DNA from: Cladosporium halotolerans
Taxonomy: Eukaryota
Assembly (NCBI RefSeq): GCF_011745625.1
Contig: NW_027191454.1
Location: 558,001-622,000, forward strand
Reading direction: 5' to 3'
Length of the DNA: 64,000 bases
The notes beneath the pieces are model-generated. The model did not search any database. It saw nothing but the letters and a program-made list of their open reading frames with translations, and had not been told where the DNA came from. Of the stretch, positions 1 through 56,679 are shown in pieces (position 1 is the first letter of the stretch; each line of letters starts with the position of its first letter). The position numbers and the translations under genes were made by a program.

Positions 1-545
1 ATATCATTATCACACACTAGCTTTTGACAATGCACTCGATAGTCTGTGTCCACGCATGTCTGCGTACGTACTGCATTGTTAGGTGAATGCCAACGCCAAG
101 CCTGGCGACTCGCTGCGCGAATGTACTATTGTAAGATATATTGTGAAGTCCGCGGATTGCTCCGCCTCCCTCGTATTCGGGCCAGTAGGGAAGCGCACGT
201 CCAAAGACTTCTGCCTCACCGATATACAAAACCCATGCAACGGTACTCTTCGCAGTGAATATGCACGCTTCGACGTCCACTGGGGCGGACGTTCTAAGCC
301 CGCGCAGGAGACGCGTCGTCGTCGCCGCCACATGAGGGCACGCGATCTAACCTCACCTCACAACGGCCGCTTTGAGACACTGCTGCGTCACCCTGCTTGA
401 GGGCGGAAGTTCCAAGCCACACCTTCCGAAATACCTACTGCTCGATCACGGAAGACTGCTCCTGAGATCATATTTAACTAAGTCTGTGGGATAGTCTCGT
501 TCTCGCCACAGAACAGCGGCTCGCCATAACCAGACAGGGCTCAAC

Positions 546-2312
546 ATGGCGCCGTACGGCGGAACCCCATTATTCTCAGAACGCAACCGGTCCGCCAAAG
601 ACGGCGGGCCCAGCGGCGTGCAACGCAACTATGCCACACAGTTGAAAGAACACGAACCGCTCTTCAACACCTACGAGCACCTGCAAGGCCTGCCGCGCGG
701 CGACGCCGCCCTCACGCTGCTGCGCAAGGTCGCCTCGGCGGTGAAACCCATCATGCGCAAACGCGGCTGGCGCGTCCAGATCCTAGCAGAGTTCCTGCCG
801 CCCGAGGGCAACCTTTTGGGCCTGAACATCAACCGCGGCTACAAGATCTGCATCCGCCTGCGCTACCACAACAACCCGGACCTCTTCTTGCCGCTCGAGC
901 AGGTCGTCGACACGATGCTGCACGAGCTCTCGCACAATCGCTGGGGCGACCACGACGCCCGGTTCCACGCGCTGTGGGACGAGCTCAGGGACGAGCACGA
1001 GACGCTCGTCCGCAAGGGCTACACGGGCGAGGGCTTCATGGGCGAGGGCCAGCGCCTGGGTGGCGGGCGGCCGCCGACGGAGCGGGATTTGAGGAAGCTT
1101 GCGCGCGCGGGTGCCGAGAAGCGCAGGGCGACGAGTACGCTCAGTTCGGGATCGGGGCGCCGTTTGGGCGGCTCTGATATCATGCTGGGTCAGGATGCGC
1201 GCGAGGTGATTGCGGGCCAGGCGCTGCTGCGCAATACGATCAACAGGGGCTGTGCTTCGACTAGGAGCGATGCTGAGTCTCTGGCGAAGTCGAGTGCAGC
1301 GACGACGTTTAAGACGAAGGCGGAGGAGGACGATGCAAACGACAGGGCCATCACGCAGGCGCTTTATGAGCTCATGGAGGAAGAGGAGGCAGCTAAGCTG
1401 AACGGCACGTTCACGAGTGCACCATCGGGTGGCGGCCTTGCTTGGAGCAGAGAGCATGGATTGTACGACCCTGCGACTGAGCACCCTCGCGTACCAACCG
1501 AAGAGGAGCAGATGAAATGGGCTATGGAGGAAAGCGTCCGCGCTGACAGAGAAGCCCGAGTCCCCATGGCATCTGGCGCCTTGCCTCCGGAATCCCTGAT
1601 CTCACCCGTCAACCCATCCTACACGTCCTCGCGGTCAGCACGCTCCGCCACCGGCACCTCTCGCGCCTCAACCGTCTCTTCCGCCCCACCACCGAGCCTC
1701 GTTTCCCCCATCAGCCCGAGGCATAAATCCTCCCGCTCTACTGCCAGCAGCTCGCGTACGCACTCCCTCGCAGACGCCAGTCCCGTCTCGCCCCTCTACC
1801 AAGAATCAACACACTCCTCCAACTCGCACTCCCACAAACGCAAAGCGTCCTCCGTCGCGCCCCCTCCCTCGCGCTCCTCCGCCCGCTCGGAAGCAACAAC
1901 TCTCAGCTCCCCCATCACTGCCATCGACCTCTCGGAGCCCTTCAACCCAGACCAGTGGATCTGCGAAATCTGCACCTGCATCAACCCGACGCGCTACCTG
2001 GCCTGCGACGCCTGCGGCATCGAGAGGCCGCAGAGCGTCAAGCCCGCGCGGACGTATCAGCCGAGCGAGGTGGGGTCGCGCGCGAGTGTGGCGAGCTCGG
2101 GGAGGTATAGCAGTAGTGTCGTGGGCTCGGCGGCTAGGTCGTCGAGGAGGAGTGAGGCGCCTGCGTCTTCGGTTCCTTCGACTTCGTCGAGAAGGAGGGA
2201 GAGGGAGAGGGAGAGGGAGAGTCTGGGGTGGGCTTGTGGGAAGTGCGGGACGTACATGGAGCATCGGTGGTGGACTTGTAGTGCTTGTGGCGCTTTGAAA
2301 CAGAGTTCATGA
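546..2312 (+). CDS. WSS1: WLM-domain DNA-dependent metalloprotease (Wss1-like) with C-terminal RanBP2-type zinc fingers
   Basis: WLM core LLGLNINRG...DTMLHELSH (HExxH), SHP-box-like FMGEGQRLGG, UIM-like TEEEQMKWAMEES, and two W-x-C-x2-C...C-x2-C fingers (WICEIC..CDAC, WACGKC..CSAC). The exact start is uncertain. Confidence 0.88.
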   Translation: MAPYGGTPLFSERNRSAKDGGPSGVQRNYATQLKEHEPLFNTYEHLQGLPRGDAALTLLRKVASAVKPIMRKRGWRVQILAEFLPPEGNLLGLNINRGYKICIRLRYHNNPDLFLPLEQVVDTMLHELSHNRWGDHDARFHALWDELRDEHETLVRKGYTGEGFMGEGQRLGGGRPPTERDLRKLARAGAEKRRATSTLSSGSGRRLGGSDIMLGQDAREVIAGQALLRNTINRGCASTRSDAESLAKSSAATTFKTKAEEDDANDRAITQALYELMEEEEAAKLNGTFTSAPSGGGLAWSREHGLYDPATEHPRVPTEEEQMKWAMEESVRADREARVPMASGALPPESLISPVNPSYTSSRSARSATGTSRASTVSSAPPPSLVSPISPRHKSSRSTASSSRTHSLADASPVSPLYQESTHSSNSHSHKRKASSVAPPPSRSSARSEATTLSSPITAIDLSEPFNPDQWICEICTCINPTRYLACDACGIERPQSVKPARTYQPSEVGSRASVASSGRYSSSVVGSAARSSRRSEAPASSVPSTSSRRRERERERESLGWACGKCGTYMEHRWWTCSACGALKQSS

Positions 2313-3080: not shown

Positions 3081-4449
3081 ATGCCCGCCAAATCGCGCTT
3101 CACAAAGCTCGATGCTTTCACCAAAACCGTCGAAGATGCGCGCGTACGAACGACCTCCGGCGGCATTGTGACCGTCACCTCGCTGCTCCTCATCCTTTGG
3201 CTGGCATGGGGCGAGTGGGCCGACTACAGGCGTATTGTCGTCCACCCGGAGCTCATGGTCGACAAGGGCCGCGGCGAGAAAATGGAGATCCACATGAACG
3301 TGTCCTTCCCGCGCATACCCTGCGAGCTGCTCACACTCGACGTCATGGACGTCTCGGGAGAGATCCAGACCGGCGTCATGCACGGCGTCAATAAGGTGCG
3401 GTTACGGCCGGAGAGCGAGGGCGGCGGCGCGATCGAGAGCAAGGCTCTGCAGCTTTCCGAGGACGACGCGGCGCAGCACCTGGACCCGAACTATTGCGGT
3501 GAATGCTACGGAGCGCCGTCGCCGTCAAACGCGATCAAGGCGGGCTGCTGTAACACTTGCGCCGAAGTGAGGGAGGCTTACGCCGGCGTGAGCTGGTCCT
3601 TCGGTAGGGGCGAGGGCGTCGAGCAGTGCGAGCGGGAACACTACAGCGAGCACCTGGACGCGCAGAGGAAGGAGGGATGCCGCATCGAGGGCGGCATCCG
3701 CGTCAACAAGGTGGTTGGAAATTTCCACTTTGCTCCCGGCAAGAGTTTCAGCAACGGCAACATGCACGTACACGACCTGGAGAACTACTTCGCCGGCGGC
3801 GACGGCATCGAGCACACCTTCACGCACAAGGTGCACCACCTGCGCTTCGGGCCCCAGCTGTCGGACGAGGTCGTCACGCGCATTGGCAAGAAGGGCATGG
3901 CCTGGTCGAACCACCACCTGAACCCGCTCGACGACACAGAGCAGAAGACGGAAGAGAAGGCCTACAACTACATGTACTTCGTCAAGGTGGTCTCGACCGC
4001 CTACCTGCCGCTCGGCTGGGAGCAGAAGACTAGCGTCTTCGACATTCCCTCCGAGCTGATCAAGCTGGGCGACTACGGCAAGGGCGAGGCAAACAGCATT
4101 GAGACCCACCAGTACAGTGTGACGAGCCACAAGCGTAGCCTGACAGGCGGCGATGCCAGCAAGGAGGGCCACAGCGAGCGACTGCACGCCAGAGGCGGCA
4201 TTCCCGGTGTCTTCTTCTCATACGTATGTCATCATTAATCTCCCACAAATGTGAATCCCATACTGACTTTCCCCCTCACAGGACATCTCCCCAATGAAGG
4301 TCGTCAACCGCGAGGCGCGCTCAAAGTCCTTCTCCGGCTTCCTCGTCGGCGTCTGCGCCATCGTCGGCGGCACCCTGACGGTCGCCGCGGCGGTCGACAG
4401 GGCGCTGTACGAGGGCGGTTCGAGGCTGAAGAAGATCCACTCGAATTAG
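3081..4449 (+). CDS. ERV46: ER-Golgi intermediate compartment protein Erv46/ERGIC3; exons 3081-4223 and 4282-4449
   Basis: N-terminal LDAFTKTVEDARVRTTSGG plus TM helix, Cys-rich CGECYGA..CCNTC, and GCRIEG..VNKVVGNFHFAPG. Intron 4224-4281 (GTATGT..TACTGAC..CAG) restores PGVFFSY|DISPMKV, the second TM helix and a C-terminal KIHSN (KxHxx-type retrieval signal). Confidence 0.93.
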
Positions 4450-5279
4450 ATGTAAGGGTTTTCGCGTTTCCTCTTTGGTTCTGCGTGTATGTTTTTGCTG
4501 TCTTTCGGTCGAGGTTGCATTTGCATCGAAAATTGGCGTGGCGCATGTAGAGGGGAGATCTTGGTGTTTACTAGGAGAAATACAAAAAGAACAATCTTCA
4601 AAATACTTATCTCCCAATCGTACTCGCTGATTGATATCGAACTTTTCAGTTTCTCTTGTTCGAGACGACTTGATAACGTTGTGCCCGGCTAGAGACGGGC
4701 CTCTTTGCTTCTGCGGGCTGATGCGACTTCACTTCACCTTTGATCATCGCTTTGCAGCCCAACCCAGCCTCAGGCCCGCTTCACCACTCGGTCTTTCACA
4801 TGCCTACCTTCGCTAGCCGCCCTTCGCCAGCGCTTCACTTGCTCAACGTTCACGTGTATCGGTTCGTATCTGTCTTATTCCGCCCGTGTCTTCGTTAAGC
4901 CCGTCACTTTGAACTACTGACTCACATACTACCCCTAGCGCCTCACATGCCTAGCCTCCTCGTCCGCCCGGTATAACACCCCGGCAGCTTCACCAATACC
5001 TTTTAACTCCGACATCCACTCTCCAATATCCACGCAGTGTCTCCAGTCCACTACGCACCTCGACTTCCGACATCCAATTAAGAAACATCCTCAACTATAC
5101 CCATTCCTTATATCGCCTCGACGCCTCCTCTTTGAGAGTATAACCTTAGAGTGATACTCTCTAATCTGCAACACGAAGGCCGTACCTTGGAGTGTACCCT
5201 CCCTACCCTCCTAGTCACTATTACAGACGCCTTGGAACCACCCTTGGGCACCTACCTCATACTCGACTCTTTTCGACGC

Positions 5280-5434
5280 GTAAGTAGAGATAACACTTCA
5301 GTTTAGGTAGACGCTTGTAATGGTCATAGAGGCTTTACCTATCCGACCCTGATAACGATTCTAAGCTGTCTACTCTAGCCTGATCTACCATATTGGATAT
5401 CTCTTTCGCCTTTCTACTAACACTTTACATCTAG
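5280..5434 (+). other. Putative 155-nt 5'UTR intron of the small tandem-repeat gene, containing an imperfect inverted repeat
   Basis: Canonical GTAAGT donor at 5280, perfect TACTAAC branch point at 5415-5421 and TAG acceptor at 5432-5434, 74 nt before the ATG at 5509. Confidence 0.55.
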
Positions 5435-5508
5435 TACCTCACATCTTCCGAGTCTTAAGCCACCCGACCTATTTCCCTGTCGACCTTCGGCAGCTCTCCT
5501 CCCGCAAG

Positions 5509-6019
5509 ATGGTTGGAAACTTGACTTTCGGCAACCTTACCAATGCCAACCAGCAGCGTCTTGCTGCCACCTTTTTCAACATCAACCCTGGCTCCCGTAA
5601 CACGATCATGACAATGGTAGACCAAAGACTCGTCCTTTAATTGTCATCTTGATCGCATGCTAACGTTCTCTTTGTAGATCAATTGGGGAAAAGCTGCCAC
5701 GGATTTTCGCTCAGACGGAGCGATCACCGGTGCTTCGTTCAAGACGAGCATTTTGCGTATCCTGAAGCGCAGATGGGCTCACGTGTCTGATTCCGATAAG
5801 AGGCGCCTCGCCGCGGCCCTCTGGAACGCCCACGACCCAAGAGCTGCTATAGCCCATGTGAGTGATCCCAGCGTCCTGAGTATGTCGTAGTCACCATGCC
5901 TTTGCTGACTATCTTCGTCATAGGTCGACTGGAATGGTGCCACGACCACTTTTAGACCTACAGGGAATTCGATCACGCCTGCCTCATTCAGGACCAGCAT
6001 CAGTCGCCTATTACCTTGA
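5509..6019 (+). CDS. Small 127-aa protein with two tandem Myb/SANT-like repeats; exons 5509-5616, 5678-5857 and 5924-6019 (absent from the ORF track)
   Basis: Introns 5617-5677 (GTAGAC..GCTAAC..TAG) and 5858-5923 (GTGAGT..GCTGAC..TAG), both phase 0, join into one open frame: MVGNLTFGNLTNANQQRLAATFFNINPGSRNTIMTM|INWGKAATDFRSDGAITGASFKTSILRILKRRWAHVSDSDKRRLAAALWNAHDPRAAIAH|VDWNGATTTFRPTGNSITPASFRTSISRLLP*. The internal repeat is visible across the junctions. Confidence 0.75.
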
Positions 6020-6503
6020 TTTGCACGGGGAGACCACCCTCGGTCGCCCAAGGAAAGCAACAGCTAGTGGCAATGTCGATGAGAAGATATTTCATGTCAG
6101 CAAACCGGTCAATTGACTTAGTAGGCTCCAAATGTGTCTGCACGACACATGATCTTGAACAAGGATGCCCTGGCAATTGTCGGACTTGGAACTGCTGGAG
6201 GAATGCAGAATCCAGGCTCGTGTCAACTCAAATGTGCAAGGGCTTTTTCTTTTTTTTTTCTACTCCGGCATGGATTGATCGGGGTTCCGGCGGATGCCCT
6301 TAGGCGCCAGAGTTCTCCTGGACCGGAATTTCGGGTTGCGTCTCTTCATTGGTGAGCGACATTCAAAGACTCAGTCTCTTCAAGATGGCTATGAGTCTTT
6401 GCGTGTAGCTCTGTGGCTTGAGCTTGCGTCTCCTACAGACTGACTTCACTTTGGTCTCAGATCAAAAGCTAATGATTGTTGAGTTTGCCTATTTCAATTC
6501 TTC

Positions 6504-9176
6504 CTATTCCTGAGTTCTCACTTCTTGAGCTACAGCGTGGCACAATTCAACCGCCACGCCAGCTCCCGACAACACATCTATCCACATACGCTGCGTATCA
6601 CTCAAGCGATCGTTCTCGCTCTTGACTTCAGCAAACATGACCTGCCCTCCCTCTTTGCCAGCCAATGCCCCATTGCCGATGCCTGATCCGGCAGCGGCAG
6701 GGTCAGATATGTGAGCTCCGTCCTTCCAGAGAAATAAGTCAGGAACCCCGCCACCGCGCTGACCGTACTCCTGAGCAAACACTTTCATAACCGTACCCAA
6801 CGCGCTCGGGGGGAAAGCCCGGCAGATCTCCTGCAAGTCTTCAAGCTCGTACGTCCAGTCTAGTCCGACCACGCAGGTGCGCCTTTCGTTGTGGTCCTGC
6901 CATACTCGTGAGAGGATTGATTCAGCATCCCCGTTGCTGATCTCGTTACAGCGCGCGTTAACCTCGCTCATCCGTGACGGATAGAAGGCATCGGAATGTA
7001 GATCCAAAGGACACGTCTGGAACTCTGTCTGGAAGACATTCGGGATATAGACGAAGAGAACGTCGTAGAAGAGGAAAGCGAAGAGTGTACGCAAGAGGCG
7101 CCCTTCGCAATGATAGCCTTTCCAACCGAGTGCGCGGTAGGACGAGAGACACATATCTTCGACGCTGCATTCACCTTCTGCTTTCACTCCTTCCCCTGTC
7201 TCGGAGTTGGTGTTTGTGTGCAGCTCAGGATCTAGCCAAATCGTCTTGGCACCGCGGAAGGATGGTTTGCCTTGCTCGCTACTTCGGCGAGAAGTCGCTG
7301 GACGCTCAATGCGAGTGCCGCTGAATGTTCGCTCGAGTGGCTTTGTGAGGCGGACGTGTCCAAAGTCATGCTGGAACCGTTTCGGTGTCTTCAGCGCTTT
7401 CTCGAGTTTGACCGTACGTTTCTGTAGGTCATGGTGGTAGATGAGATGGGTGAGCTGATCTTCCAGTCCCGTTTCGCATGTCTGCAGAGCCATTCGTCTC
7501 CAATGCTTCTTCTTGGTTTCCGTGTCCTTACACGTCGGTGGCGAAGGTAAATGGAGATGCATGTAATGTTCCTCGAGCAAAGCCTTTCGCTGGTACCAAT
7601 CGCCGCGTCGCGATGTGTGAAAGAGTCGCTGACCCAAGAGTTCGCAAAGCACCTCATGCTCGCGCTTGTGATCTTTGAACTTGCCGAGCACGTATGCAGC
7701 TTTGTGTATGATCCGTGTGTAAACCCATGCTGGTGATAATCGGCGGAGATACGCGCCTTCACCAGTAGAGTAAATACTGTCTTCCTTTCGCTGCTCATCA
7801 TCCAGCAGAACTTTCCAACGTGGATGAACCTCCTCGAAAATATCGAGGATCATTTGCAATTTTTCCGTAGTCGGAGTACCATTGAATTCAAGGATGTTGT
7901 CAACCCTAAATTGCGTGCGTATCGATGCTTCGAATTCTAACAGAAGTGGACGAGAAGCAAAGATGTTGGCACTTCTGCTCACGATATATTCTGGGAAGTT
8001 CCATCTGGCGATGCGGGCAAGTATGATTGTCGTAAGTGATTTCTCGGTCCATTCGGTACTGCGGTAAAACACAAGATGAACACGCTCGAAGAGCTTCAGG
8101 ACGGGAAAGGAAAGGCGTATACACGGTCCCGTCTCTGCCATGATCTTGTCCACAAAGTATGCGTCGCGGTTCTCGGCTCGACTAGGTGTATTGCTTCGGC
8201 TGCGGCCATCTTCCAGACCTGATCCTGCTGAGGCGGCACTTTCTTCGGTTTCAGACCGCTTCAGGCTAGCGAAATCTAAGCCGGTCTGTTTGCCACTTGC
8301 CTTTCTCAAGGCACGCAGAAGTTCTCTCTTGTTCTTGCCTTGGGCTTTTGCGTCTTTTGCGATGGCTTTGAGTTCATCCAACAACAATAACGACGACGCC
8401 TCTTCTAGATCTTTGATGCAATCTTCAGAGCGATCTGCGAAAGTGAATTGCTCACCAAGAAACGCACCCTCTGGTGGATCCAACTCGCCTGGATTGTCCT
8501 GGGGAGCTGCCGACGTGCTCGGAGTTTCCCGGACGAGTTGTAGGTCAGAGATGGCTTGAGGCATGTCTGCAATGTCGCTATGGTATCCAAGTCGATTGAT
8601 TCGGTGCCAACTGGAAGTCTTTCGTAAGAACAGACGGACGTAGAGATACTGCGCTTCATAGCTAAGTTCCCGCCATTGCTGGAAGACAGAATGCTCTGCT
8701 TCGTCGAACAGGTGGCTCTCATCCTCCAACACTGTCTCAAGCGCCAGATTGAAAGCGTCCACATATATCGAGCTTTTGCCTCGCACCCATTTCGAATCTG
8801 CTAGCCGGCCCTTTAAGTCGAACTCTCCCGCTGCGCGTGAAGCCTCGTACGCTTCTATGGCTTCCTTGTCGGACTGGATGTGAGGCAAGGCCGTCTCAAG
8901 GTCTGTACGCTTGTCCCCTTGAGGCTCGTCTTCGTGTACGACCTCATCATCGCTATCCGCATCCGAGTCTGCGATCTCGCTTTTGTACGACCTCTTTTCT
9001 GTTTTTTGCGGGCTTGCCTTTTTCGTCACGAAGTCCGAGATGTCGCGCTTGATGCGCTTGGGAGGTGGCGTCGCAAAGTCCTCGTCGCCCTCATCATAGT
9101 TGGTGGCCTTGGAGTGCGGTACCCGCGTACCCACCATGGCATTGTGCTTGGATGGACTGCTGGCCTGCAGCACCAT
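6504..9176 (-). CDS. FAN1: Fanconi-associated nuclease 1 (VRR-NUC domain)
   Basis: 890-aa ORF with the winged-helix region YLYVRLFLRK..W, a SAP-like segment, the TPR region (RRGDWYQRKAL) and the C-terminal PD-(D/E)xK nuclease motif GGVPDLFLW...FAEVKSENDRLSDTQRMW. Confidence 0.92.
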   Translation of the reverse strand: MVLQASSPSKHNAMVGTRVPHSKATNYDEGDEDFATPPPKRIKRDISDFVTKKASPQKTEKRSYKSEIADSDADSDDEVVHEDEPQGDKRTDLETALPHIQSDKEAIEAYEASRAAGEFDLKGRLADSKWVRGKSSIYVDAFNLALETVLEDESHLFDEAEHSVFQQWRELSYEAQYLYVRLFLRKTSSWHRINRLGYHSDIADMPQAISDLQLVRETPSTSAAPQDNPGELDPPEGAFLGEQFTFADRSEDCIKDLEEASSLLLLDELKAIAKDAKAQGKNKRELLRALRKASGKQTGLDFASLKRSETEESAASAGSGLEDGRSRSNTPSRAENRDAYFVDKIMAETGPCIRLSFPVLKLFERVHLVFYRSTEWTEKSLTTIILARIARWNFPEYIVSRSANIFASRPLLLEFEASIRTQFRVDNILEFNGTPTTEKLQMILDIFEEVHPRWKVLLDDEQRKEDSIYSTGEGAYLRRLSPAWVYTRIIHKAAYVLGKFKDHKREHEVLCELLGQRLFHTSRRGDWYQRKALLEEHYMHLHLPSPPTCKDTETKKKHWRRMALQTCETGLEDQLTHLIYHHDLQKRTVKLEKALKTPKRFQHDFGHVRLTKPLERTFSGTRIERPATSRRSSEQGKPSFRGAKTIWLDPELHTNTNSETGEGVKAEGECSVEDMCLSSYRALGWKGYHCEGRLLRTLFAFLFYDVLFVYIPNVFQTEFQTCPLDLHSDAFYPSRMSEVNARCNEISNGDAESILSRVWQDHNERRTCVVGLDWTYELEDLQEICRAFPPSALGTVMKVFAQEYGQRGGGVPDLFLWKDGAHISDPAAAGSGIGNGALAGKEGGQVMFAEVKSENDRLSDTQRMWIDVLSGAGVAVELCHAVAQEVRTQE

Positions 9177-49703: not shown

Positions 49704-51237
49704 TTACAAGTCGCCCTTAGCGACGTAAGGCTCAAGCCTCTCCATGAGATCCTCGACTTCGAGCTCTTCGCCAGTCCACTCGACACCAGGGCCACCAGGA
49801 AGCTTCTTCGGCGGGATAAGCACGTCGCTGACGACCTGAATCACACCATCCTCCGCAACGCCATCCTGGACAGTGACACGACCAAAACCGTTGATCTTAA
49901 TACTGATGAAGCCACCGTAGCGCGCAATATCAACGCTCAAGCTGCGGTCCTCAAGCAGCGTCGGCAGGTCGACGTGGAAGTAGCCCTTGGGCACGCCCTC
50001 GTGGCTCTCGCTGCTGTCGGCTTTGTAGTAGGCGTCGGAGTAGAGCGTGTTGTCCGGCACGATGTGGTACTCGAGCAGCGCCTTGAGGTACTTCTGGCCG
50101 TACTTGCTGAAGAGGAAGGCGTTGATGCGCGGGCCCAGTTTCTGGAAGGCGAAGTTGGAGGGCGCGAAGAAGGTGCCGCCCTTGTGGTCGGTGCTGTTGA
50201 TCATGTCGAAAAGGCCCGTCTTGCCTAGGCCGAGCTCGAGCGTCGAGAACTCGCCCGGCAGCAGGTCGATGATGGTCGCGACGTTCGGGGGCGGCAGGAT
50301 GATGCTGTCGACGCCGTGGATCACGCCGTTCGTGCCGAAGATGTTGACCGCCACGATGCGGGAATAGAAGTTGACGGTCAAGCCTTTGAGGCCGATGTTG
50401 AAGGCGAGGCGCTGGGGGAGGGGCTCGCCGCCAAGGTGGTCGCCCTTAAGGAGGGTGGGGACGGTGTGGGTGAAGAGGACGCGCTTGGCGGGGTAGAGGT
50501 CCTCGACGACGTGGTAGGACAGGAGGGCCTCAAGGAACTCCTTACTGGGCTTGTGGTGGTGCTCAGGGATCTTCTCGAAGGCCTTGTCGGTCGGGGCGAA
50601 AACAGTCTGTAATGTTGTCAGTCTACCTGCAATTCAGGTTGTGAGAGAACATGAGACGTACGTAGTTAGCCTTGGTGCTGTTGAGCTTCTCAACCAGATC
50701 CGGGAAGTCATTGACGAGCTTAGCAAGCTTGGTGGTGTACTTGCTGTGGGCAATCAACTCGTAGACGGTGTGATTCGGGGGGCCGTGGTGGGGTGGGTGG
50801 TGAGGGCCGTCGTGCGGCGGGTGGTGGGGACCATCATGAGGAGGGCCGTGGTGGGGAGGGCCATGGTGAGGGTCATCGAGGGCCTCATTGAAAGACTCCA
50901 ACTCAGACTCGAGCCAGGACTGAGTGTCGAAAGCGGTATCATGGACCTTCTCGTTGAAGCCTTGAATGGCACCATCGGCTTTGGAGAAGGCGGCATCAAG
51001 CGCGTTCTTCGACTGCTCGGAAGCCTCGTTCCAGGCATCCTTCGTTGTCTCGGTCACTTCGTCGAAGTGCTTCTTGAAGCCAGAGAGGACGTCGTCCTTG
51101 GTGGAAACGGCATCATCATACCATGAGTTGCCACCGCGGTGGTTCTCCTCGATGGAGATCTCCTGGAGGACTTCCTCTGATGGGAGGACCAGGGCAGAGC
51201 CGGCTGCCACGAATGGCAAGACGTGAGAAAGCTTCAT
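49704..51237 (-). CDS. Secreted fasciclin protein with two FAS1 domains and His/Pro repeats; intron 50607-50661
   Basis: Signal peptide MKLSHVLPFVAAGSA, FAS1 motifs NY|TVFAPTDKAF, NGVIHGVDSIILPP, TFFAPSNFAF..LLEYHIV and DGVIQVVSDVLIPP. Confidence 0.88.
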
Positions 51238-52437
51238 GATGTCTGAAGCAGTATCACAGCAATGATAGATGGAAGGTGAAAGGAAACAGCTCAATGATGG
51301 AGTGAAATAGTGTTGCCTACGCTTATGCGCACGCCATGCCTACGAGCCGATGACGACTACGACACGGCGGTCCGGCAGGACAGAGCTCCGTCCTCCACGT
51401 CTTCGGTGTTGCGAACGCGAGGGCAGCGCCATCTCGGGTTTCAGTTAATGGTGGTCTGGGATCCATTGCTCTCTGGTATGGAGGCTGTCGCAGTCGCTGC
51501 TGGGAAAATACAAGTTTCTTGATTTCTGTTAGGGCCGAGCGTCCATTCAACTCAACAATAGTTGCGAATGGTTACTGTTTGGAGCGAAGAGGATCATGAC
51601 ATCAGAGCCTGTGGATGCAGACATCGTTTCTCTCGCCTTTTGAGAGAGAGAGCTGCAGGCGAGTCGTTCGAGACACATGCTGACCCTTTGAACCGTTGGT
51701 CGATGGTGTTAGTTGGCCAGCCCCAGGGCCATTGGTTTCAATCCAACAATTCAGACATGTCCTGCACCATTCACCTTCTTTCGTATTCCTCGGTCGATCA
51801 GCAAATGATCAGTAGCATGCGTGAAACGCCAACGGACGAGCACGGATGTGCCAAGTGTGATCCCCCGGAGCCAAGGCGAGCTGGTGCATCAGCGTGGTCT
51901 GAACATATCGCGGGGCAAGTAAACACCGTGCCTGAAATGTTTATACCGTGATGTCCATCAACGGATACCAGATCACGATAATCGGACCTTTCATGTCGTC
52001 CTCGGTCCCACATGCTGCATCTCCGCGCTGGGTAGCCTGAAGCCTGCCATTCGTCATAGCAGCGGAGGGCGGCGGATCAAGCTCTCCGTCCCAGCCGAGC
52101 GAGACCACCCAAATGCTGGCCGACCACGCCAACCACGCAGCTCTTACGGCACGGCCATACACTGCTCACCTCCTTGCGTAGGCTGATCCACCGCTCTCAC
52201 CCGCATCTTCGTATGCTCTTTGTCACGCTTGACGTCAGCCTGTGGTCCCCAATGGTCTATTCACGGTAGTCGCGGTGCGTGAGAAGCATCTGATCTTAGA
52301 ATGGATAAGTACAAACAAACCGACTCCCCACCTTCCCAGCTCTTCCACACCTCAATTGCCCTCACAACCTGCCGTTGACCCTCAATTGCCGTCCACTTTC
52401 TTTGAAATCAATCTCGGCAAAACTCACTTAACCCAGC

Positions 52438-54223
52438 ATGGCCGGACTCGCACGCCACGTCGATCCCGACGAGGTCATTGCCCGCCTCCACGAGCACCCT
52501 CATCTCGCCCACCGCGCGAAGCATCGCAGCACTGTCTCCAACCTCACACCCTACAGCAGCCGCTACAATGCCCAAACCGAGCTCTCCAAGTACCGGATCC
52601 CGCAGGCCGGCGCGCCTGCCGACGCCGTGCACGAGATGCTCAAGGACGAGCTTGATCTCGACGGCCGACCCAACCTGAACCTTGCGTCGTTCGTCGGCAC
52701 CTACATGGAGCGCGATGCCGAGGCGCTCATGGTCGAGAACCTCAGCAAAAACTTGGCCGACGCCGACGAATACCCTGCCATGATGGACATCCACGCTCGC
52801 TGCATCAGCATGATCGCCCATATGTGGGGCGTGCAGAAGGGCGAGAAGGCCATTGGGTCTGCTACGACGGGCAGCAGTGAAGCGATTCACCTTGGCGGTC
52901 TGGCGATGAAGCGTCGCTGGCAGGAGAAGCGCAAGGCCGAGGGCAAGGACACTTCGAAGCCGAACATCATCATGGGCGCCAACGCGCAGGTCGCGCTGGA
53001 GAAGTTCGCCCGCTACTTCGAGGTCGAGGCTCGTATTCTGGATGTCTCGGCGAAGAGCTCCTACCGCCTTGATCCGGAGCTCGTGAAGAAAAACATTGAC
53101 GAGAACACTATTGGTGTCTTCGTCATCCTCGGAAGCACCTACACTGGGCACTACGAGCCTGTTTGGGAGATCAACGATATCCTCGATGAGTATGAGAAGA
53201 AGACTGGTGTTGATATCCCGATCCATGTGGATGCCGCGAGTGGAGGTTTCATTGCGCCTTTCACAAACGCGCAGGTCGGAGGACACAAGTGGAACTTTGA
53301 GTTGCCTCGAGTGAAGTCGATCAATACGTCCGGCCATAAGGTAAGTTCAACATGTTCTCCCGCACTGTTGTCCGTAATTATCACGGTCCACTAACGTCGC
53401 TGTAGTTCGGTCTCGTCTATGCCGGCGTCGGCTGGATCGTTTGGCGCGACGAAAGCTACCTGCCCAAGCACCTGATCTTCGAGCTTCACTACCTGGGCGG
53501 CACTGAAGAATCCTTCACCCGGATTCTTCACCCTCAACTTCTCCCGCCCTGGCGCCCAAGTCATCGCGCAGTACTACAACCTGATCCACCTCGGCTTCGA
53601 CGGCTACCGCGCGATCATGGAAAACAGCCTCGCAAACGCCCGCCTGCTCAGCAAATCGCTCGAAGCGACAGGCTGGTACCGCTGCATCAGCGACATCCAC
53701 CGCCCCAAGGGCCAGATCGAGTACAAGCCGGGCGAGTACTACGAGGGCAATGACGGCGAGACCTCCGCGGACTACAACGCCGGCCTCCCCGTCGTCGCCT
53801 TCACGCTCACGGACGACTTCAAGCAGAAGTTCCCGCACGTCAAGCAAGTCAGCATCTCAAACCTGCTGCGCGCGAAGCAGTACATCATCCCCAGTGAGTA
53901 GTCCCTTCCCACCCGCCCCTCGCACCCCGCCGCTAACAAACGCCGCAGACTACCCCCTCCCGCCCAAGGAAGAGGGCACGGAGATTCTGCGCGTGGTGGT
54001 GCGCGAGAGCATGTCGCTGGACCTGCTCGACCGACTGATCACGGACATCTTCGCGGTGACGGAGAGTGTGATGAACAGCGATGCGATCGACCTGGGCATC
54101 TGGCAGCCGTTCCAGAACAACAACAGCACGGAGAAGGAGCACAGCAGCGCCGGCGCCAAGTCGCACGAGAAGCACAAGCACCGCCAGCCGATGGAGAAGG
54201 GCGTGCACAGGACGGTGTGCTAG
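52438..54223 (+). pseudogene. GAD1: Glutamate decarboxylase (PLP-dependent) with an apparent +13-nt frameshift at 53521-53533; exons 52438-53340, 53406-53893 and 53949-54223
   Basis: LDGRPNLNLASFV, KNLADADEYP, TTGSSEA, HVDAASGGF, PLP lysine INTSGHK|FGLVYAG, and NYPLPP..LRVVVR. The conserved GGTEESFTLNFSRPG is split by an inserted GGATTCTTCACCC. The gene identity is secure, but pseudogene versus assembly error is unresolved. Confidence 0.75.
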
Positions 54224-54366
54224 ATTGTCGGTGTTGGGATGGTTCACGAGCGACAATGATGGGTTTGCAGATGTAGTAATGAAAAAGGCGATGCAAGCGT
54301 AAATGGGTAATAGTTTTAGTGTTGGGACATTTCTCTTTCATTTCTCACGTTTGAAGTCGTTTGTTC

Positions 54367-56679
54367 CTAAAAGCTGCCGCTTTCGAGCACCTCGTCTTCG
54401 GCCTCCGCCTTGGGAGCCTTCCTGGGGTCGTCTCTCGCCAGCAGCACTTTGGTATCTTCCCTCTTGCCCTCAGTGAGGTCAATCCCGCTGTCTCCATCCC
54501 CTCCACTCAGCATCCCCGGTCCACCCTTCTTCGCAAGCTCCTTGTCGTAGCTGCTCGGGTCAATGCCCAAAATGCCGCCGACATTATTGCGGTCGCCCGG
54601 CACAGAGAACTCGCGGAAAGCGTACCGCCACTCGGTCAAATACTGACGAATCGCCTTGCCGACCTTGTCCTTCCCGTTCTTGCTGTGGTGCCCCGTGCCC
54701 GTGATGGCGTACACCGGGCGCGCCGAGGCCTTGTGCTCCTGCAGGCAGTCGGAGAGGTACGCGACGGCCTCGTCGGCGTGCAAGCCGTGCAGGTCGACGT
54801 ACAGCTCCTTCTGGCGGCCGTCGGCCGCGGCCAGCAGCTTGTTGCGCTCCTCGTACAGCACGCGCGCGGCCTCGCGGTGGGCCTCGCGCATGAGCGCGTT
54901 CTCGTTCTGACCGCGGAGGGAGAGGGCTTTGGCGCCACGCGCGTCGTTGCGGTTCCAGGCTTGCGCCGCGGACTGCAGGAACTTGTTGCGCAGGCCGCCG
55001 TGCCGGACGGCGTCGGAGCGCGCTTTGAGGTACGCACGGTTGACGTTCTCGCCCGTCTCCAGCCAAGGGATATCTTTCGGGGGTGGGATGGCGAGGGAGG
55101 CGGTGCCGTTTTCGCGGGTCGAGGTGAAGCTGCGGTTGTTGCGGAGGCCGCGGCGCATGGCTTCGCGGGAGTTGGGGTTTGAAGGCGCGGGCGAGGGGCT
55201 CATGCGCACGACGTCCGCGAGGGATCCGGGCTGTGGAGTGACGATCGCGTTGTTGTTGTGGTGGCCGTGTCCGCCTCGCTTGCCGTGATGGCGTTTCCCG
55301 GGTCTACTAGCAGCAGCAGATCCGAGGGAAGGAAAGGCCTCGTCGTCGTTGAAGTTCGGCTGAGACCCTGGGGTAGGTGCTCTGGAATTATGTCTGCTCC
55401 CAGGGCGAGATGCTGGTAGAGATTGATTGCGCGGCCCCGTCGGGACAAAGTTCGGGAACAGGCCTGGCGGAGCGGCGGCAAAAGCCTGCTGGTTCTGCAG
55501 AAGGACAGCACTGATAGTCTGCGGGTCTACTAGGGGATCCGTGTCTTCGTAGGGATTGCTAGTCTGCGGCTGCAAAGATGGGAAACTGTCGTAGTCCTGG
55601 AGTTGGAGATTGGGTGGTACTTGCTGAGGCGTGCCGGCTTCGCTGTTGCTGTTCGTAAGAGACAGCTGCTGCATCATCGCTACCGGGTCATGCGAGAACT
55701 GGCAGAGATTGCCTGCAAGACAGTTTCCCTGCAGCCAAAACTTGCAGACGTGGTTCTCGAGGGTGTGAGCAAAGCGACAGTCAGCGCGAGCGCAGTGGCC
55801 CGACGAGAGCCAGTAGCGGCAAACGATTGGGGACTTCTGCTGGCCGACTGGAGTGATCGGCCGGGAAGAGGGAGACATGCTTTTGCCGACCAAATACGTG
55901 TGACTTTGCTGCTCCTGTCCTGCCGCTCCGGTAACGCCTGAATCTTGGGCCTCCATCAGGAAGTTGATTGTCTGGCTGAGGTCATAGCCGTTGGCCTCCA
56001 GTATCTTTTCCAACTCATCGTCGCTCCTATTGTCCTGCAAGATGGAGCGAAGCATGTCGTAGGGGCTCATGTCTGTCGTGTAAGGTTGCATATACTCTGA
56101 CGTGCTTGTGAAACCAGCGTCACCGAAGCTCGTGTTGCTGCTGGTCTCGTCATTGACGAGCCAGTCCACATTGTCGCTGCCGTAATCGCCATAATTTTCG
56201 GTCGTGGGCGAAGAATCACTGAATTGGTAGATACTAAGCCTCGGTGAATGTGGGATTGCTGGCGTTGAGATCGGAAGTCGAGGCGAAGGCTTGGGCGAGG
56301 TGAAGGGAGAGGCAGTCGAGCTCATAGTACGGGCAAGCGCAGGCGGCTGTGGTCCCAGGCCCGGAGGTGGGCCCGGGGTGGCATTTGCAGGGCGCGGCGA
56401 GCCAGCATTTGAAGGCGTACTCGCGCGCTGCAACCAGGGAGCAGGCGAGCGCGAACGGATGATGTTCGCACCGCGCATGGTCTGAGGACTCGTTGTCTTC
56501 TCCTTTGCGCCCTTCCATCTCCACAGCGCGCCCAAGACAGCATCCTCCAGGGCTTTGCCCTTCAGCGAAGCAGGCTCACTGCTCAGCAGTTCCTCCAACT
56601 TGTCTGTCTTCTCCTCATCTCCCAGGTCGTCATCGTCCAGCACAGGCTGGCAAAGCTCGTATATCCGGTCGGACACCAT
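54367..56679 (-). CDS. CCCH zinc finger / CUE-like / DUF1771 / Smr-domain protein (putative RNA endonuclease)
   Basis: Two CCCH fingers (CRYWLSSGHCARADCRFAH, CKFWLQGNCLAGNLCQFSH), a CUE-like helix bundle, DUF1771-like AAQAWNRNDARGAKALS, and Smr motifs VDLHGLH and ITGTGHHS. Confidence 0.88.
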   Translation of the reverse strand: MVSDRIYELCQPVLDDDDLGDEEKTDKLEELLSSEPASLKGKALEDAVLGALWRWKGAKEKTTSPQTMRGANIIRSRSPAPWLQRASTPSNAGSPRPANATPGPPPGLGPQPPALARTMSSTASPFTSPKPSPRLPISTPAIPHSPRLSIYQFSDSSPTTENYGDYGSDNVDWLVNDETSSNTSFGDAGFTSTSEYMQPYTTDMSPYDMLRSILQDNRSDDELEKILEANGYDLSQTINFLMEAQDSGVTGAAGQEQQSHTYLVGKSMSPSSRPITPVGQQKSPIVCRYWLSSGHCARADCRFAHTLENHVCKFWLQGNCLAGNLCQFSHDPVAMMQQLSLTNSNSEAGTPQQVPPNLQLQDYDSFPSLQPQTSNPYEDTDPLVDPQTISAVLLQNQQAFAAAPPGLFPNFVPTGPRNQSLPASRPGSRHNSRAPTPGSQPNFNDDEAFPSLGSAAASRPGKRHHGKRGGHGHHNNNAIVTPQPGSLADVVRMSPSPAPSNPNSREAMRRGLRNNRSFTSTRENGTASLAIPPPKDIPWLETGENVNRAYLKARSDAVRHGGLRNKFLQSAAQAWNRNDARGAKALSLRGQNENALMREAHREAARVLYEERNKLLAAADGRQKELYVDLHGLHADEAVAYLSDCLQEHKASARPVYAITGTGHHSKNGKDKVGKAIRQYLTEWRYAFREFSVPGDRNNVGGILGIDPSSYDKELAKKGGPGMLSGGDGDSGIDLTEGKREDTKVLLARDDPRKAPKAEAEDEVLESGSF

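Follow-up and report, generated by a model that had tools for sequence, protein, structure and literature searches.

A three-exon microgene of two tandem repeats beside FAN1 in Cladosporium halotolerans, and its predicted intertwined fold

The microgene described here is located at positions 5509–6019 of a 64,000 nucleotide (nt) stretch of the Cladosporium halotolerans genome (assembly GCF_011745625.1, contig NW_027191454.1, positions 558,001–622,000), termed the window, whose numbering is used throughout. Splicing of three exons gives a 127 amino acid (aa) protein. The analysis establishes the gene structure, expression in one sample, an internal duplication, a family of relatives, synteny, loss of a tail that relatives carry, and fast evolution. 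We give about even chances to the view that the microgene, lowly expressed and still under selection, is a derivative without a tail in a small family of Cladosporium type, with an intertwined double helix-turn-helix (HTH) fold and a role as a nuclear DNA or chromatin binder.

Gene structure, transcripts and relatives

The exons (5509–5616, 108 nt; 5678–5857, 180 nt; 5924–6019, 96 nt including the stop) are separated by two introns, both with canonical splice signals and in-frame stops. Three exons, two phase-0 introns and a product of 127 aa had been proposed in a preliminary description from the sequence, and all are borne out, as is the statement that the protein is essentially two repeats and no more: it stops directly after repeat 2. 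The protein has a mass of 14 kDa and an isoelectric point (pI) of 11.9. A count of copies finds the gene single-copy in its own genome. Four of 24 listed public sequencing runs (X2, X3, X4 and X8) were compared over window 3900–6900, and two of these set the minimum extents of the untranslated regions (UTRs) in the following list.

5435–5508, forward strand: 5′ UTR, minimum extent (X3 contig 5435–5604).
5509–5616, forward strand: exon 1, 36 aa; helices 1–2 of repeat 1 (helix positions from the model of the relative P0016).
5617–5677, forward strand: intron 1, 61 nt, phase 0, immediately 5′ of the x-[DN]-W motif; donor GTAGAC, acceptor TAG.
5678–5857, forward strand: exon 2, 60 aa, symmetric phase 0-0; helices 3–4 of repeat 1 and helices 1–2 of repeat 2.
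5858–5923, forward strand: intron 2, 66 nt, phase 0, a duplicate of intron 1; donor GTGAGT, branch CTGAC at 5905, acceptor TAG.
5924–6019, forward strand: coding part of exon 3, 31 aa and TGA; helices 3–4 of repeat 2.
6020–6250, forward strand: 3′ UTR, minimum extent (RNA-like contig of run X2).

Run X2 is without a library type on record, yet it skips the intron of the upstream neighbour ERV46 and is therefore RNA-like. One X2 contig of 617 nt spans 5507–6250 with 0 differing letters and skips exactly 61 and 66 nt, GT..AG. The predicted junctions 5616/5678 and 5857/5924 are thus both found. Among the four runs they are seen only in X2, which shares its sample with the DNA run that best contains this sequence, and the splicing evidence is that of one sample. 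The contig shows no further intron 3′ of exon 3 (to 6250), and therefore the stop codon is present in the mRNA. The second RNA-like run, X3, covers just 5435–5604 and 5928–6237 of the gene region. Runs X4 and X8 read through both introns and are DNA-like; the branch point of intron 1, CTAAC at 5660 in the window, is CTGAC in these two runs.

Skipping of exon 2 would leave an in-frame single-domain protein (exons 1 and 3); there is none in the one spliced contig. A short X2 contig at 5034–5135 (depth 5.8, loose ends on both sides) is found in intergenic C-rich sequence upstream and may represent an extended 5′ region or an independent transcript.

The gene had been thought lineage-specific. This does not hold: homologues are present at two loci, termed L003 and L004, and in Cladosporium sp. 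NU13. Both L003 and L004 are divided into three exons by phase-0 introns that precede the same motif, the first at the position of intron 1, and the proteins (239 and 249 aa) have a KRK-rich and acidic tail. The Cladosporium sp. NU13 protein (MBLNU13_g00686t1, accession number GAB7328795.1, hypothetical protein) is properly spliced and has 267 aa, i.e. two repeats and a 142-aa tail. Its repeats are 44% identical to those of the window protein. It differs in the tail, in the pI of the domain (8.6 vs. 11.9), and in having the short and long hinge loops in the opposite order; in the window gene the long hinge loop is that of exon 1. The family form is two repeats followed by a disordered basic (KRK) and acidic tail. 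The family is not lineage-specific; the tailless form is.

A search with exon 2 yielded 4 relatives among 1.84 billion representatives. Profile searches, with about 8,000 candidates scored in each, gave at least 13 and at least 12 proteins among the matches listed. Among the other homologues, most were predicted from metagenomes, with the introns at these two sites translated as if coding. The homologues, and the air, dust and indoor origin of the runs, agree with the genus Cladosporium. An origin de novo, or as an orphan, is rejected. P0029 (E-value = 0.36) looks like a chance hit, and the N-terminus of P0001 is a wrong-frame prediction.

Internal duplication and predicted fold

The protein alignment of repeat 1 with repeat 2 scores 88 (BLOSUM62), compared with 22 ± 4 for shuffled sequences (0 of 5000 as high). 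At the DNA level, introns included, the score is 93.5 compared with 44 ± 7 (highest of 500 shuffles: 77.5), with the two introns aligned in register. The intragenic duplication of an exon-intron module, which had been read from the sequence, is borne out by these values. A one-repeat gene with an intron before x-D-W was duplicated internally, and this produced three exons and two identical intron positions. A third, decayed repeat 3′ of the stop is unsupported in 4 tests (p 0.30–0.95).

The subsequent history of the repeats may be an order swap, a re-duplication or a conversion. When the repeat order is swapped relative to the tailed relatives, the score is higher in 5 of 5 comparisons. Against an order swap, exon 1 and exon 3 are each nearer to their own class among tailed relatives (7/7 and 5/5). 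Both half-repeat types of the window score nearer to the tailed exon-1 and exon-3 classes (7/7, 7/7, 5/5 and 5/5), which fits re-duplication or conversion in the window lineage. The repeat tree has 1 of 15 branches starred and omits P0025, P0022, P0023, P0026, P0004, P0005 and P0018, which have no whole repeat.

The model of P0016 displays four helices per repeat and a disordered tail, with a predicted local distance difference test score (pLDDT) of 81–95 per 10-residue block over residues 1–120. Of 50 listed structure matches, 41 align over 62 residues or fewer; all 41 run from residue 10 or earlier to residue 123 or later, and none is confined to one repeat. One repeat modelled alone gives no fold (pLDDT 59, predicted template modelling score 0.28). 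Because the aligned ranges span both ends and a single repeat fails to fold, the models indicate that the repeats probably fold jointly as a tandem domain swap, with chain crossings at the intron positions.

Tandem domain swaps are the subject of a review by Lafita, Tian, Best and Bateman. The topology consists of a “central” circularly permuted domain (the end of repeat 1 and the start of repeat 2) and a “terminal” domain from the two ends; in the review, such swaps are treated as misfolds with no experimental PDB structure in 2019 (PMC6863430). The aligned ranges of the microprotein imply the same split. Exon 1 would be the N-terminal half of the “terminal” domain and exon 2 the “central” domain. 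In contrast to the reviewed cases, the swap here is predicted to be the native state, with hinges at the intron positions.

The preliminary description assumed another topology, in which each Myb/SANT repeat is self-contained and one follows the other, as in R2R3 Myb proteins, and we regard this as the less likely of the two. In its favor, AlphaFold can swap homologous repeats artefactually, the sequence repeat is clear, and the helix spacing is like that of Myb units. Tandem swaps are, moreover, usually described as misfolds (PMC6863430). None of the 41 short alignments keeps to one repeat, however, the R2R3-MYB chain 6kks aligns over just 44 residues and not as a tandem, and the single repeat has no fold by itself.

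Six listed structure rows are titled Myb or MYB; sigma-4 and response-regulator HTH chains account for many of the rest. A three-helix arrangement of 44–59 residues aligns with Myb/SANT and GARP domains (PDB 6kks, 1x58, 6jui, 2cjj, 2din, 1x41; DMAP1 4iej) and with other HTH proteins (DosR 3c3w, sigma factors), with a root-mean-square deviation of 2.3–4 Å for the best rows. The Myb/SANT core has a regularly spaced triad of Trp or aromatic residues; the repeats have one Trp (x-D-W; Cys in some repeats), a Y/F/W before helix 1 and an F in the last helix. The most invariant motif of the family is located in the last helix. This and the pI of 11.9 suggest, indirectly, that the last helices may mediate nuclear DNA or chromatin binding. 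The microprotein likely works like a small Myb/HTH protein. The Myb/SANT-like character that had been claimed has partial support, from alignments with HTH/Myb structures; Pfam and profile comparisons give no match, and self-contained repeats are disfavored.

The microprotein cannot be filed under the Pfam family PF22980 (Myb_DNA-bind_8). The hidden Markov model (HMM) of this family (>27 bits) gives no match for the window exons, the spliced P0016, P0027 (a divergent counterpart described below) or 17 other homologue records, and in a genome-wide search it marks 4 places, none at the microgene locus. No Pfam Myb family matches the microgene exons or any homologue scanned. In the reverse direction, an HMM of the repeat, a shallow profile, scores two PF22980-type loci of this genome, L008 and L007, at 0.2 bits (145 of 2000 shuffles as high) and 2.6 bits (26 of 2000). 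The hhalign probability between the repeat profile and PF22980-type members, shallow profiles again, is 0.8% or less.

There are nevertheless resemblances to PF22980. Tailed relatives share with it a short N-terminal helical domain, an x-D-W/Y motif and a disordered KRK-rich and acidic tail. A PF22980-like gene of this genome, L008, has a KRK/acidic tail and a phase-0 intron directly before P-D-W, as do both window introns before their motif. Of this architecture, which is a resemblance and not a formal criterion, the window form has the introns and is without the tail. The microgene differs in having two repeats and not one, an extra short helix, and a last helix S-F-[KR]-T-S-I in the family in place of R-M-R-L or K-R-F; L008 has an additional phase-2 intron that is absent from the microgene. 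In the literature searched, with most subscription papers outside it, the microgene family is undescribed and PF22980 is named in none.

Three loci were noted during the genome scan. L008 (G000:C175 ~287,700; 1377–1457, 1507–1559 and 1616 onward) is a 117-aa PF22980-like gene hidden by introns of 49 and 56 nt, the first just before P-D-W; its exons are individually below the Pfam cut-off. Two further Myb-like genes are L009 (G000:C1 ~1,336,500), whose protein looks as if it had two repeats and matches PF22980 weakly, and L012 (G000:C394 242,385–242,549), a DUF7626 member (85.8 bits).

Tail loss, chromosomal setting and a divergent counterpart

The window protein ends directly after repeat 2, where relatives continue into a tail of 110–140 aa. 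One segment may be left of this tail:

6015–6116, forward strand: weak candidate for a remnant of the lost basic tail, in the +1 frame downstream of the domain.

The best of 27 frame-by-tail tests gives p = 0.0075. Five of 9 tails have p < 0.06 in the +1 frame and 0 of 18 tests do in the other two frames. This suggests that the tail may have been lost through a frameshift.

Over the repeats, the window and L003 differ at proportions of 0.37 for non-synonymous (pN) and 0.73 for synonymous sites (pS, near saturation); the corresponding substitution rates are dN 0.51 and dS about 2.6 (saturated). With pN well under pS, purifying selection appears to have acted over the long path between the two. 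The repeat dN is 0.52 between the window and L004 and 0.21 between L003 and L004, compared with 0.10 for FAN1. Branch dN is about 0.41 for the window and about 0.105 for L003 and L004, yet the 3′ end of FAN1 is about equidistant among all three (81%–85%), and therefore the window branch is about four times longer.

The neighboring genes are as follows.

3081–4449, forward strand: ERV46 (ERGIC_N and COPIIcoated_ERV), upstream neighbor; intron 4224–4281.
6504–9176, reverse strand: FAN1 (VRR_NUC, FAN1_HTH, FAN1_TPR), downstream convergent neighbor, conserved in L003 and L004.

The Pfam domains at both flanks agree with the names ERV46 and FAN1 given earlier. A comparison of this interval in relatives had been recommended earlier: a microgene homologue lies beside FAN1, and convergent with it, in both L003 and L004, and the next two genes are also kept in L003, but ERV46 does not adjoin in L003. 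The upstream genes of L003 are instead genes that lie reversed at window 49,711–54,225; the 5′ side of the microgene is therefore an inversion breakpoint. We take these genes to be a fasciclin-type protein and glutamate decarboxylase. The inversion is ~44 kb relative to L003 (L003 1–6850 against window 49,711–54,447), with breakpoints at window ~4450–5500 and ~49,700. A repeated element upstream is rejected, positions 4560–5510 being single-copy. Two genes upstream of the microgene (window 495–2312) there is a WLM-domain gene with a RanBP zinc finger, presumably Wss1-like. That both the WLM-domain gene and FAN1, two genes of DNA-repair type, lie no more than about 4 kb from the microgene is probably a coincidence.

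P0027 (KAI3475341.1, 539 aa) is deposited under the name Cichorium endivia and comes from a contig of 42.6 kb. By sequence it is a fungal contaminant, a mis-fused and frameshifted model of ERV46 plus the microgene, and it is known from this one protein record with one flank (ERV46) only. The ERV46 part is identical to the window in frame at 148/148 and 93/93 positions (241/241) and in shifted frames at 56/56 and 53/55 (109/111); the shifted-frame comparison also exposes synonymous sites. One of the two differences, 4293 A>C, is common to X4 and X8, which carry the window-type gene. The near-identity of ERV46 places P0027 in the same species or nearly so.

The last 126 residues of P0027 (414–539) are a tailless microprotein with an open frame and with both splice sites and the end point as in the window. 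Only 61 of 125 residues are identical to the window protein. A match to window 5436–5459 (7/8 aa) precedes it, and the gene therefore has the same position and start. The 75 nt upstream of the microgene are also diverged. The pI is 11.8, and the number of K and R residues (16) is the same as in the window. Of the 44 residues that the window shares without variation with three tailed forms, P0027 keeps 25, and those it has lost are concentrated in the last helix of each repeat. Its identity to tailed forms is 31%–35%, compared with 42%–46% for the window. To diverge this far under neutrality would take about 0.35 substitutions per site, a level well beyond that of the flank, and only 152 of 2000 neutrally mutated copies stay open at that divergence in substitution-only simulations. 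The record shows that the tailless form predates the split between the window and P0027.

The proposed explanation begins with duplication of a one-repeat gene, giving the two-repeat, three-exon family form. Exons 1 and 3 would build one helix-turn-helix/Myb-like unit and exon 2 its circularly permuted twin. The microprotein would enter the nucleus and bind DNA or chromatin via the S-F-[KR]-T-S-I-x-R helix, invariant in the family, that each unit contains. Without the likely localization and activation functions of the tail, it may be a passive binder or competitor and not an activator. Tail loss and relocation at the inversion breakpoint would have accompanied the about fourfold faster protein evolution. 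Selection is taken to be still acting because the second tailless form, P0027, keeps the open frame, the splice positions and the charge.

P0027 itself may have another origin, which we consider possible though less likely than not. It could be an old tandem paralogue lost from the window haplotype, or a block introgressed from another species at a breakpoint-prone site, with no balancing selection needed. The inversion breakpoint on the 5′ side, the diverged 75 nt upstream, and the half-repeat class scores, which fit re-duplication or conversion in the window lineage, are in line with this. Against this origin, a search of the own genome with P0027 gives no second copy, and X4 is collinear over all 3,001 bases.

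Several observations weigh against strong current constraint on the window gene and agree with a decaying relic, in which a frameshift removed the tail, constraint relaxed, and the gene is still transcribed and spliced only passively. The window and X4/X8 have 215 differences; among 40 of these, 5 are coding and 4 of the 5 non-synonymous, and at M36, L62 and A87 the X4/X8 residue is family-like, being that of P0027 or of tailed relatives. X4 has a one-base deletion at 5594, by which the open reading frame (ORF) would end at 33 aa, and X8 (record 16) has 3 unplaced gaps within 5225–5878. The long window branch, the weak +1-frame tail relic and the loss of the invariant motif in P0027 can be added. 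We still judge a relic unlikely. The X4 deletion is known from a single contig (depth 10.7), where it falls within CCC, and may reflect either a null allele or an error in the homopolymer; the altered branch point (5662) retains the consensus; and two 49%-identical tailless forms are both open, with the same end, both introns and the net charge kept.

Equally unlikely, in our estimate, is a het-like self/non-self or otherwise balanced locus, with two ancient ~49%-identical allele classes segregating within a species or species complex between near-identical flanks and with recognition-helix changes that set specificity. Such a locus is compatible with the proposed fold, and the identity of ERV46 (241/241), the shared 4293 A>C and the divergent microprotein at the same position are as it would predict. 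Aspergillus fumigatus het loci (hetA–E) have one divergent central gene and a footprint of a few hundred bases (PMC11138114), and het-e haplogroups of Neurospora crassa are 26%–30% identical (PMC4540973). In these, too, a single gene at a syntenic position is highly divergent although the adjoining sequence is nearly identical; one such flank is seen here. They differ in that Pfam scans of the microgene find no HET, NLR, patatin or CHAT domain, nor does it have PNP, and in that the second form is a single record, known from sequence, whose mis-fused model comes from an assembly with frameshift errors. Balanced alleles of equal age would not have to diverge so unevenly from tailed forms, and no link of Myb with allorecognition appears in the literature searched. 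The full combination of a native tandem-swapped double HTH, exons as swapped domains, and tailless forms as deeply diverged balanced alleles with differing recognition helices is quite improbable.

Significance

At minimum, Pfam and ORF-based annotation overlook an expressed gene here and, with it, a fungal family that is conserved. The microgene further illustrates, cleanly, how an exon-intron module was duplicated and a tail then lost. Such a duplication is ordinary; what surprises is the predicted swap with hinges at the introns, and a counterpart that is only half identical.

If the swap is true, a topology hitherto regarded as misfolding would have a natural stable example in the microprotein, its hinges marked by introns. 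Were the 49%-identical form an allele, the gene would be a candidate locus of genetic conflict or non-self recognition, and its protein would be of a type unreported at such loci in the literature searched. Should both the native swap and balanced alleles be true, fungi would have a self/non-self or conflict locus of a new kind, one built on a DNA-binding microprotein and not on HET/NLR death domains.
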